Shown here one piece after another: positions 59,516 to 63,180 of a stretch of 64,000 nucleotides of DNA (position 1 is the first letter of the stretch; each line of letters opens with the position of its first letter). The DNA is from Treponemataceae bacterium. GTDB lineage: Bacteria; Spirochaetota; Spirochaetia; Treponematales; Rectinemataceae. Below the pieces are notes generated by a model, which did no database searches, was not told the DNA's origin, and saw only the letters and a list, made by a program, of their open reading frames with translations. Location of the stretch: positions 608,001-672,000 of the forward strand of contig CAXXVZ010000005.1 of the NCBI GenBank assembly GCA_963678065.2. The letters run 5' to 3'. The position numbers were made by a program, and so were the translations under genes.

Positions 59516-59634
59516 CGTACACTCCCTCTGCCAGGACCCGGGATTTCATTGTACCGCGCTGGCCTTTTTTAGCACAGCTCTTCGCCGCCCAGGGCGTTAT
59601 TGACAGGATAGCGCGTCAGTACGGAAATCAGATT

Positions 59635-60012
59635 ATGAGCGCATGGACGCGGACCCTGAAATTCATCGCGACCGGAACGATTTCCCTCCTTCTTACCTCA
59701 TGCTACGGGACCATACAGGCCATGTATGGGGTGCCGTTCCGCCTGCGCGAAGCCACGATCCGCGCGAGGACGGGGGACAATCGCCCGATTCCGGGGCTCT
59801 CTGTCGTGATTCACGGAGACCATTTCCTGGAATCGGGCAAGACCGACGCTTCAGGCGAGGCGGTCCTCACAGCAGACCCCGACGTCGATCTTTCGTTGCT
59901 CATACGGGATATCGACGGCGCGGCCAACCTCGGCGAGTTCGCCGACCAGGAAGAGCCCGTTCCCAAAATCGGTGGCGATATCGAGATGAACGTGACAATG
60001 ATTTCCAAGTGA
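59635..60012 (+). CDS. Radical-SAM-associated putative lipoprotein (TIGR04134-like)
   Basis: Lipobox LTS-C followed by YGTIQAMYGVP; beta-sandwich-like PIPGL, TDASG and DIDG..N.GEF; GTGA overlap with the rSAM gene. Confidence 0.75.
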   Translation: MSAWTRTLKFIATGTISLLLTSCYGTIQAMYGVPFRLREATIRARTGDNRPIPGLSVVIHGDHFLESGKTDASGEAVLTADPDVDLSLLIRDIDGAANLGEFADQEEPVPKIGGDIEMNVTMISK

Positions 60013-61088
60013 ATCTGTTCCCCGTTTCCTTCAGGCAGAAGGCCTATGACCGTCACAGGGAAATCGAGACGGATCGGCATATCCTCCTCTACCTCTTCTT
60101 CGAACTCACGCGGCGATGCAATCTCCGCTGCCGGCACTGCGGTTCGGACTGTTCGAGCGAAACGGCGCGTGGAGAACTCGACACGGCGAGCTGGCTCAAA
60201 ATCGTCGATTACCTCGCGAAGAATGCTTCGCCGAAACCCGCGATCGTGCTGACTGGAGGCGAACCGCTCGTCCATCCCGGATTTTTCGACATCGAGCTCG
60301 CCCTGCGCGACACAGGGTTCACGTGGGGCATGGTCACGAACGGATTCTCCCTCAACGAGGACAGACTCGCGCGCATCACCGAGGCGGGCATCTCGAGCAT
60401 CACGGTCTCCTATGACGGTACAGAGGAAGCCCACAGCTGGCTGCGCAATCACCCCCATGCCCATGAAAGAGCGATCGCGGCCATGAGGCTCATCGGAAAA
60501 TCATCGATCCCGACGCGTGACGCGGTCACCTGCGTCTTCCCCGCCAATCTGGACCGCCTCGACGAAACGGCCGAGCGCCTGGCTGGACTCGGCATGAACA
60601 GCTGGCGACTCTTCCGCATCTTCCCGAAGGGGCGCGCAGCGGAGGAACCGGAGCTCTCGCTGTCGCGAGGACAGAGTCTCGAACTCGTCGATTGGATAGC
60701 GGGAGCACGGACACGCTGGGCTCCGAAGGGATTCGACATTTCCTTCAGCTGCGAAGGCTATCTACCCTTCGCCATCGACCGGAAAGTCAGGGCCGAACCC
60801 TTTTTCTGCCGCTCGGGCATCAGTATAGCCTCCATTCTCTGCGATGGAATCGTATCGGGCTGCAACAACAACGGCCCCGAGTATGCCCAGGGCAACCTCC
60901 TCGAACGGGACTTCTTCGACATATGGGAGCGGGGCTTTGCAGAATATCGCGGCCGCGAATGGATGCGAACCGGCATTTGCGCGGACTGCGACGAGTGGAA
61001 GCACTGCCGCGGCGGATCCATTCATTTGCGGAGGAAAAACCTTCCGGGCCCCGGCTTCTGCTATATCAAGGACTGCCCTTCGGGCTAG
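60009..61088 (+). CDS. Radical SAM/SPASM-domain protein (TIGR04133-like)
   Basis: GTG start at 60009; CNLRCRHC, TGGEPL and WGMVTNG; SPASM Cys pattern FFCRSG...GC and CADC...CRGG...C. Confidence 0.88.
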   Translation: MNLFPVSFRQKAYDRHREIETDRHILLYLFFELTRRCNLRCRHCGSDCSSETARGELDTASWLKIVDYLAKNASPKPAIVLTGGEPLVHPGFFDIELALRDTGFTWGMVTNGFSLNEDRLARITEAGISSITVSYDGTEEAHSWLRNHPHAHERAIAAMRLIGKSSIPTRDAVTCVFPANLDRLDETAERLAGLGMNSWRLFRIFPKGRAAEEPELSLSRGQSLELVDWIAGARTRWAPKGFDISFSCEGYLPFAIDRKVRAEPFFCRSGISIASILCDGIVSGCNNNGPEYAQGNLLERDFFDIWERGFAEYRGREWMRTGICADCDEWKHCRGGSIHLRRKNLPGPGFCYIKDCPSG

Positions 61089-61141: not shown

Positions 61142-61957
61142 ATGGCATTCGGCATTCCACCGAGAAAACCGGAAAAACACATGCCCTTCTACAAGATGCT
61201 CGACATCTTCGACGAGGAGGGGTGCCCCGTCTGCAATCTCGTGAACCGCGCGGTGGAAGGCTACTTTGCCGATCTCCTCTACGAAAACGTGAATGACAGG
61301 ACGCTCAGGGCGCGCTTCGCGCGCGACGTCGGACTGTGCAACCGACACGTCCACCAGCTCGGCGGGTACAATGACGGGCTCGCCATCGGGATTCTCTACA
61401 GAGACATCATCGCGAAGACAATCCGCGCGCTCGGCGGCCCCGACGGCGGCGCGGCTTCGGACATGGTCACGGAGCTGCCGCTCCACCGGGGGCACTGCCT
61501 TGTCTGCGACTACGAGCGGGATACCGAATCCCGCATGATCGGCATCATCGCCGATTTCGCCTGCGATGATGAGTTCCGCGCGCGGTTTCTCCGATCGCGG
61601 GGCCTCTGCATTCCCCATCTCGCGCGCATCGCTTCCGCTCTGCCAGGAAAGACTCTCCCCGCATGGCTGGCCGATTTCCACCGGGAAAAATACGCGACTC
61701 TCCTCTCCGACCTCGACGTCTACCTCGAATCGTGCAACTTCACGCGGGACAGGAGCAGGCCGCAGCCGGACAGCGCTCAGAGCCGCGTCTGGAAGAAAAT
61801 TCCGGACCGCGTCGCGGGGTATGCGGGGCTGCCGAGGTACACCGACGCGAGAGTGAAAAAGGGGATCGCCCACGCGCTGTTCGGGACGAAGCGTGGAACA
61901 GGACTAAGCGGCAACTCCGGGGGCTCCGATTCCGGAGACAAGGATGGACAGCGATGA
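61142..61957 (+). CDS. DUF6062-like Cys/His-rich protein
   Basis: Duplicated CPVC...GLCNRH and CLVC...GLCIPH modules; LLYENVND. Confidence 0.7.
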   Translation: MAFGIPPRKPEKHMPFYKMLDIFDEEGCPVCNLVNRAVEGYFADLLYENVNDRTLRARFARDVGLCNRHVHQLGGYNDGLAIGILYRDIIAKTIRALGGPDGGAASDMVTELPLHRGHCLVCDYERDTESRMIGIIADFACDDEFRARFLRSRGLCIPHLARIASALPGKTLPAWLADFHREKYATLLSDLDVYLESCNFTRDRSRPQPDSAQSRVWKKIPDRVAGYAGLPRYTDARVKKGIAHALFGTKRGTGLSGNSGGSDSGDKDGQR

Positions 61958-63180
61958 AGCATGCTGAAATCGTCTATTACACCGGCACGGGCAACACGCT
62001 CCGCGCACTCACAATTGTCGCGCAGGAACTCGAAAAAAACGGATGGACCGTCTGTATGACGGACATCGGGACAGGCCAAGTCCCCGCCGCCCTGACGCGC
62101 ACTCCCGGATGGGCGCCGGACTCAGGCGACATGCTCATCGTCGGCTTCCCGACTCTGGGATTCTCGGCTCCGGCTTCGCTATTCCCGTATCTGGGACGTC
62201 TTTTGTGCGCAGGATCGGCCGCGGCGGCCCATGTGGCGTCTGAAGCGGCGATGCGGGCCGAATCGCCTGAGGCAGGTCCGCCGCAGACGGCGCTGCCTCA
62301 GGTGGCACTGCCGCAGGCAGCCATCCTCTGCGCCTGCGGATCGAGCGCGACGAAAGGCGGCAGGATAGTGAACGGATGGAGCGGAACCGCGTCACAGAAA
62401 GTGGCGTCCGAACTCTCGCGACTGGGTTACCAGACCGTCGCGAGCGCCGACATCTCCTACACGGAAAACTGGACTCAGGTCACCAGTCCGCAGGATGGAA
62501 AAATCCGCGAAGCCATGACTGCCAGGGGCGACGCCCAGGCGGCGGCATTCGGCGCCGATCTGGCCGCAGGACGATTTTGCAGGCTGAAGCGCGGACTCGC
62601 GGCAAAGGCCTTCGGGCAGCCGGTCGGATGGATATTCCGCACTCTCGCCCGCAAGGCCCTCGCGAGGATGTTCGGCGCCGACTCCTCGTGCACCGGCTGC
62701 GGCCTGTGCGCGCGCACCTGCCCCGCGGGCGGCATCGACATGAAGGGCGAAAGGCCGGCCTGGAATCTGAACTGCACTGCCTGCAACCGCTGCATCAACG
62801 CCTGCCCCACGCACTCCATACAGACCACGACCGCGCGGCTCGTCCTCATGGCGGGGCTCAACATATTCTTCTTGATAGCGTCCTGGCCTGCCGCGAAGGC
62901 CATCCTGCGGGCGCTGCTTCCCGCTCTCATGGGACAGCTCTCCGCGGGCGCCCCACCGGCGTTCCCGGGCGCAGGTCTCGCGGCATTCCTCCTCACCTTC
63001 GCGCTCGCCTTCGCCCTCTTCGCGCTCGCCACACTCTTCCAGGTCGGCCCCCTGGACGGGGTCCTGCGAGGCCTGGAGCGCAACTCCGTCACAGCCCGTC
63101 TCTTCGAAGCCTCGTACACGAAGAAATTCAGGCGATACCTCGCCCCCGGATTCAGGCCGGGCGAGAAACCCTACAGATAA
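61954..63180 (+). CDS. EFR1-family flavodoxin-fold plus 2[4Fe-4S] ferredoxin protein with a C-terminal membrane segment
   Basis: Start MKHAEIVYYTGTGNT at 61954; CTGCGLCARTCP and CTACNRCINACP. Confidence 0.85.
   Translation: MKHAEIVYYTGTGNTLRALTIVAQELEKNGWTVCMTDIGTGQVPAALTRTPGWAPDSGDMLIVGFPTLGFSAPASLFPYLGRLLCAGSAAAAHVASEAAMRAESPEAGPPQTALPQVALPQAAILCACGSSATKGGRIVNGWSGTASQKVASELSRLGYQTVASADISYTENWTQVTSPQDGKIREAMTARGDAQAAAFGADLAAGRFCRLKRGLAAKAFGQPVGWIFRTLARKALARMFGADSSCTGCGLCARTCPAGGIDMKGERPAWNLNCTACNRCINACPTHSIQTTTARLVLMAGLNIFFLIASWPAAKAILRALLPALMGQLSAGAPPAFPGAGLAAFLLTFALAFALFALATLFQVGPLDGVLRGLERNSVTARLFEASYTKKFRRYLAPGFRPGEKPYR

Follow-up and report, generated by a model that had tools for sequence, protein, structure and literature searches.

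A YG-motif lipoprotein and its adjoining radical SAM/SPASM enzyme as a candidate splicease-like pair in a Treponemataceae bacterium

Does a radical SAM/SPASM enzyme encoded by a Treponemataceae bacterium modify the lipoprotein encoded directly upstream of it and, if so, does it act like the spliceases, by excising tyramine at a Tyr-Gly (YG) site? The question is raised by a locus in a 64,000-nt stretch of contig CAXXVZ010000005.1 (assembly GCA_963678065.2, forward-strand positions 608,001 to 672,000), which is referred to here as the window and by whose positions all coordinates are given. From comparisons of sequences and structure models, we favour a splicease-like lipoprotein-modifying pair in which tyramine would be excised from the lipoprotein, with a probability of roughly 0.58. 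The features concerned are listed below.

59600..59628, forward strand: weak promoter-like site (TTGACA, 17 nt, GGAAAT), read from the sequence
59635..60012, forward strand: predicted lipoprotein gene, 125 aa, TIGR04134-like though under the cut-off (ORF, NCBIfam profile and structure model); likely substrate
59635..59700, forward strand: predicted type II signal peptide (residues 1-22), for which the model gives a helix (sequence and model)
59701..59709, forward strand: Cys23-Tyr24-Gly25, the lipobox Cys and first YG (sequence; present in 14/14 partners of the closest enzyme clade)
59722..59736, forward strand: Met30-Tyr31-Gly32-Val33-Pro34, the second YG (sequence; matches the family consensus Y-G-x-P)
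59746..60009, forward strand: transthyretin/carboxypeptidase-regulatory-like beta-sandwich that spans about residues 38-121 and includes a D-x-D-G loop (structure model and homolog comparison)
60009..61088, forward strand: radical SAM/SPASM enzyme, 359 aa, TIGR04133-like though under the cut-off (ORF, Pfam, NCBIfam and structure model)

The original prediction of a lipoprotein with C-YG-TIQA-MYG-VP at its predicted mature N-terminus was borne out by the ORF at 59635-60012. The N-terminus of the encoded protein was basic, then hydrophobic, and then carried the lipobox L20-T-S-C23, from which the sequence continued Y24-G25-T-I-Q-A-M30-Y31-G32-V33-P34. Lipidation of Cys23 is predicted from the lipobox rule and from the presence in the genome of genes for Lgt and of two LspA matches. 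When the mature protein was shuffled 200,000 times, two YG motifs within 12 residues of the Cys appeared only 17 times, which indicates more than chance. Of 119 lipobox-like ORFs in a rough genome scan, three had a YG no more than 19 residues from the Cys and two had C-YG, and the ORF at 59635-60012 was the only one with two YG motifs near the Cys. A second lipobox-like C-YG ORF (150 aa, G000:C1, minus strand) could be a distant second substrate or a chance occurrence. The structure model of the lipoprotein consisted of a signal helix (residues 3-23), an unstructured core (residues 24-37) and, behind it, a transthyretin/carboxypeptidase-regulatory type of beta-sandwich. Both YG sites would thus be in an unstructured stretch between the signal helix and the folded domain, which was counted for the favoured reading. 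Matches in the ESM Atlas were confined to unnamed and CarboxypepD_reg-like clusters, and the beta-sandwich was variable among partners and missing from some. On one contig at a depth of 3 (run X11), the Gly25 codon carried a G>T change, which may be an error.

The predicted translational coupling of this lipoprotein gene to a radical SAM/SPASM gene likewise held. The enzyme gene began with GTG at 60009, overlapping the TGA stop of the lipoprotein gene (GTGA), and ended at 61088; this start was assigned from the overlap and from the lengths of homologs, and the open frame extends further upstream. The radical SAM motif CxxxCxxC (C37, C41 and C44) read CxxxCxHCGS, Pfam scores were over cut-off for both Radical_SAM (82 bits) and SPASM (25.4 bits), and the SPASM residues were C267, C285, C324, C327, C333, H339 and C351. 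The structure model was confident (pLDDT 93.7), and its fold matches were generic radical SAM/SPASM structures only. A search of the PDB by sequence and by fold returned no solved splicease or close relative; the best matches, SkfB, SuiB and anSME, are uninformative as to the chemistry of the modelled enzyme. The nearest named match was a Salinispira MAG (57%), and the genome is that of a spirochaete.

Whether the lipoprotein is the substrate was judged from homologous loci found by the enzyme alone. There were 112 such loci, the query's own included, of which 94 were usable after 18 had been dropped (15 with too little upstream DNA, two in which the enzyme was not recognised and one without an ORF); 60 loci of other SPASM enzymes and of AhbD-like enzymes served as controls, 51 of them usable. 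An upstream lipobox-like gene was found in 88 of the 94 homologous loci as opposed to 3 of the 51 control loci, and a YG at most 19 residues from the Cys in 71 as opposed to none, counts that come from related and thus not independent loci and from a script that favoured any upstream lipobox ORF in both sets and made wrong picks at L024, L134, L148 and L178. C-YG occurred in 45 and two YG motifs in 11 of the usable homologous loci. Within the 88 partners, YG lay within 50 residues of the Cys in 80, and Y-G-x-P was present in 71. The YG motif was thus kept in homologs; its loss there would have spoken against the original prediction. Given this coupling of YG to a lipobox beside homologous enzymes, and its absence from all 51 controls, the enzyme very likely has the lipoprotein as its substrate.

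Co-occurrence was also noted among 401 genomes of the phylum, with the enzyme in 22, the lipoprotein profile (partly built from these genomes) in 24 and both in 19. Two of the three enzyme-only genomes had short YG partners, and in two of the five partner-only genomes an enzyme, cut or divergent, adjoined the partner. Among five partner homologs with no TIGR04133-type enzyme in the 3-kb locus (L195, L196, L216, L219 and L220), none had YG after the Cys; one had Y-M-P and another C-Y-S-G. The homolog at L196 (G438:C62:1420-4773), which has no Tyr after the Cys, lay immediately upstream of another radical SAM gene, a more distant one. The nearest partner homologs, P0006 and P0007, kept 17-18 of 20 signal residues, 11-12 of 12 core residues and 26-27 of 91 domain residues (about 29%) of the query, although both were retrieved through exact-word matches, a route that may favour the conserved end. 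Since these homologs conserved the signal much better than the mature domain, the signal possibly serves as a leader as well. No tracking of signal-peptide identity with enzyme identity was seen over all 87 loci (rho 0.14, p 0.19), which was counted against the favoured reading.

The proposed assignment to the TIGR04133/TIGR04134 pair was correct as to the best-scoring models but not as to their curated cut-offs, which neither protein reached. Thus, the enzyme scored highest with TIGR04133 (346.5 bits against a cut-off of 425, with the next model at 109.7), and TIGR04134 was the only NCBIfam match of the lipoprotein (26.9 bits, E 4e-6, against 39.8). From these scores and the trees described below, the enzyme is filed as a divergent member of the wider TIGR04133 clade and not of the equivalog. 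Gene order, with the lipoprotein directly upstream, was shared with the hypothetical equivalogs TIGR04133 (rSAM_w_lipo) and TIGR04134 (lipo_with_rSAM); unlike these, the subclade of the query had an invariant C-YG and a Gly at -9, and the query itself had two YG sites. Scoring against TIGR04103 and TIGR03913, also put forward originally, placed the enzyme in neither family (101.5 bits against a cut-off of 725, and 87.7 against 591.75), and models for AhbD, NirJ and TIGR04053 scored it at about 109 bits, above TIGR04103. We take TIGR04103 to be the family of PlpX (IPR026482). The TIGR04103 and TIGR03913 models span only part of the range of spliceases.

The relation of the enzyme to PlpX-like spliceases was assessed with a tree of 44 rows (eight long-branch rows omitted from 52) and a small outgroup sample. 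The clade of the query was sister to, and not nested in, seven PlpX-like enzymes (97/79, just under the star threshold of the tool), namely a Nostoc enzyme that passes TIGR04103 (853 against 725), enzymes assigned to TIGR03913 by annotation or score, and unnamed relatives, none of them an experimentally proven splicease. The originally suggested kinship with PlpX would, from this tree, be that of sister clades. A 12-row clade (97/85) and an 18-row clade (100/99) each contained the query and L031, which is over the TIGR04133 cut-off (607.9 bits), and the query lay in a mostly spirochaete subclade (100/100) inside the wider TIGR04133 clade. Joining either clade to the heme/NirJ group was rejected (p-AU 0.022 and 0.021, the groups having been named after inspection of the tree), and clustering with radical SAM enzymes that do not modify peptides, which would have spoken against the original prediction, was not seen. 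A FastTree run with five outgroups did not settle the deep branches.

Motifs of the enzymes gave a divided picture. CxxxCxxC-G[SA] was present in 93/112 enzymes of the query clade, 7/8 PlpX-like enzymes and 0/37 outgroup enzymes, and Trp199 in 95/112 and 8/8 of the first two groups. The SPASM pattern CxxCx5Cx3C, a diagnostic of our own, was found in 8/8 PlpX-like enzymes but in only 2/112 of the query clade and not in the query; 104/112, the query included, had CxxCx5Cx5H, in which His replaces a Cys ligand. Cys48 was present in 94/112 of the query clade, the query had Arg200 and Arg209 where PlpX-like enzymes have Gln and Asn, and its identity to one TIGR04103 member was 26%. Of the splicease features tested, a radical SAM enzyme with a SPASM domain and an adjacent precursor with a conserved XYG were found at the locus. 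The residue preceding YG varied among partners (C 48, E 14, M 13, K 3, A 3, R 1, P 1), and this XYG-type variation, together with the sister position and the shared CxxxCxxC-G[SA], was counted for tyramine excision. Counted against it were the 26% identity, the AhbD, NirJ and TIGR04053 scores above that of TIGR04103, the His SPASM ligand, Arg200 and Arg209, and a basal subclade (L024, L027, L028, L029, L109, L217 and L223) whose partners, often in tandem, had Y-M-x-P, Y-A-x-P or Y-I-G-P and no YG. On balance, tyramine excision appears probable from these comparisons, provided that the lipoprotein is the substrate.

The alternative that survives best accepts the lipoprotein as substrate and Tyr as target but supposes other chemistry, such as a crosslink centred on Tyr, removal of its side chain or cleavage of the backbone. 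Sister clades of radical SAM/SPASM enzymes often differ in chemistry, and the low identity, the Y-M, Y-A and Y-I partners and the clade-specific His339, Cys48, Arg200 and Arg209 are all consistent with such a difference, whereas the free X position, the Y-G consensus and the CxxxCxHCGS and Trp199 common to PlpX-like enzymes argue against it, as does a similar YG/YM/YA spread among peptides beside TIGR03913-like enzymes. We regard other chemistry as rather unlikely, though as a serious competitor. Of its forms, a Cys23-Tyr24 thioether is disfavoured because it would consume the lipidation thiol and because in many partners the YG lies 27-68 residues away from the Cys. Several genomes held both YG-type partners and partners of the basal Y-M, Y-A or Y-I type.

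As to which YG would be used under tyramine excision, C-YG was present in all 14 partners of enzymes that share 45% identity or more with the query, and Gly nine residues before the Cys in 13 of these 14 as opposed to 4 of 73 partners outside this closest clade. Pro at +4 was noted in 34 of the 45 C-YG partners, and three of the 11 that lacked it (the query, L004 and L106) had a second Y-G-x-P. From these counts, MYG-VP best fits the family consensus while CYG is never lost in the closest clade; either site, or both, may be used.

The mechanism that we propose for the splicease-like pair begins in the cytoplasm, where the enzyme would bind the unexported precursor by its N-terminal part, perhaps via the conserved signal helix in the way that RhaX is engaged by its leader helix. 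A radical formed at Tyr would lead to excision of tyramine (C8H9NO) at Met30-Tyr31-Gly32 and possibly also at Cys23-Tyr24-Gly25. Modification would precede export, an order that we infer, and Lgt and LspA would then act, with lipidation of Cys23, to give a membrane-anchored protein that bears an alpha-keto-beta-amide next to its anchor. The XYG rule, tyramine excision and activation of RhaX by its leader helix are described in PMC11414181 (see also PMC10533398, PMC11002830 and PMC10114670). As in the type I spliceotide system PlpX/PlpY/PlpA, a radical SAM/SPASM gene adjoins an XYG precursor here, and as in the binary type II systems RhaX/RhaA, RcsX and RasX, there are two genes and no Y protein. 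Unlike spliceotide precursors, the query precursor is a predicted lipoprotein with N-terminal YG and a folded domain behind it. A precedent for cytoplasmic modification followed by lipidation, and one that was counted for the favoured reading, is provided by the DAG-RiPPs DybA/DybH (PMC13056109), the precursors of which have a type II signal peptide. The DAG-RiPP criterion of a type II signal peptide with a lipobox describes the predicted query precursor as well. The DAG-RiPP enzyme is an MNIO that acts on a C-terminal Cys motif, as opposed to a target that would here abut or include the lipidated Cys, and neither 'radical' nor 'rSAM' is mentioned in the main text of PMC13056109. Splicing at C-YG would alter the residue handled by Lgt, LspA and Lnt, which was counted against tyramine excision from this lipoprotein.

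Two other alternatives are far less probable. In one of them, splicing is real but the product is a short peptide or lipopeptide, the signal helix serving mainly as leader and the beta-sandwich as a dispensable carrier, so that a surface lipoprotein is perhaps never made. Five partners with signal and YG had fewer than 60 mature residues and no domain, the signal was unusually conserved in the closest clade (the Gly at -9 noted above), and the binary splicease RhaX is known to need its leader helix for activation (PMC11414181); yet the lipobox-like Cys was kept in 88/94 loci regardless of the position of YG, the domain and D-x-D-G loop were kept in 54/88 partners, and no protease or exporter gene was conserved beside the pair among the loci listed, so that we consider this very unlikely. 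The remaining alternative, in which the enzyme's product is a small molecule and the lipoprotein, regulated together with the enzyme, serves as a partner for binding or export, draws on heme-pathway HMM scores that equal or exceed that of TIGR04103 and on the different compartments that the enzyme and mature lipoprotein would occupy, but it is marginally less probable still, given that signal and YG were the only strongly conserved parts of the partner, that homologs away from the enzyme had no YG and that the grouping with heme enzymes was rejected.

A splicease-like pair of this kind would extend tyramine splicing from free peptides to membrane-anchored proteins, and it bears on whether a cysteine with a rewritten backbone still passes lipoprotein maturation. 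The query copy is a handy test case, since both site types, CYG and MYG-VP, occur in one small protein. By analogy with free spliceotides, which inhibit proteases according to PMC11626197 and PMC9811515, the ketoamide might serve in protease inhibition, although we put this forward as a tentative and somewhat doubtful suggestion. That TIGR04133-like enzymes in general are protein spliceases which arm surface lipoproteins of spirochaetes and Bacteroidota, with a His-containing set of SPASM ligands, would be a still bolder and unlikely generalisation.

The pairing itself is already catalogued and widespread, and its occurrence at this locus is unsurprising. At least 577 confirmed metagenome stretches carried the pair, which was also present in records of Treponema and Parabacteroides, and a genome of the same order had the partner protein found in a Treponema saccharophilum record. 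Distribution was patchy at closer range: 36 genomes from the same family included two with the pair, and the query genome had one copy. The survey method for spliceases described in PMC10849128, YG frequency beside SPASM genes with 27 confirmed pairs, would catch the TIGR04133 family, so this family, and with it the pair, may have been included in the 2022 splicease survey. No published functional test of the TIGR04133/TIGR04134 family was found in the literature searched, the scope of which left aside the Scott 2022 splicease survey. Four proteins of 730-850 aa (P0036, P0042, P0073 and P0075) each had two matched radical SAM stretches, the second being TIGR04133-like in P0036 and P0042.

Upstream of the pair, the promoter-like site ended 6 nt before the ATG, and a Shine-Dalgarno sequence was not evident there; the lipoprotein transcript is possibly leaderless, as judged from the sequence. 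A consensus scan for promoters and terminators gave nothing above chance, and this site was not among its matches. Three sequencing runs read A at 59624, a closer match to a -10 element. Coverage by RNA run X20 was confined to the flank of the pair and speaks neither for nor against its expression. Between 52635 and 59515, KdpD-like and KdpE-like genes on the reverse strand faced two TrkA-like genes and one TrkH-like gene on the forward strand, with no genes of KdpABC size between the two sets and with the KdpD-like gene divergent from the pair. Downstream, at 61142-63180 and on the same strand as the pair, were a DUF6062 gene and an EFR1-like flavodoxin/ferredoxin gene; a redox partner of the latter kind would suit a radical SAM enzyme. 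The DUF6062, EFR1-like ferredoxin and KdpD-like genes were dropped as parts of the system when they proved not to be conserved beside homologs.

Two alleles of the region 59586-61030 were noted in a groundwater metagenome (run X9), in which the intact cassette had a depth of 9.85 and its flanks about 20. The second allele, a 160-nt contig at a depth of 8.3, joined 59585 to 60884 and 60922 to 61031, so that the pair was almost wholly missing. This contig, the only one of its kind, from one run and with a short side of 25 nt, suggests that a co-occurring strain has lost the pair by deletion. At the first joint of the deletion allele lies a 9-bp repeat (59587-59595 and 60885-60893).
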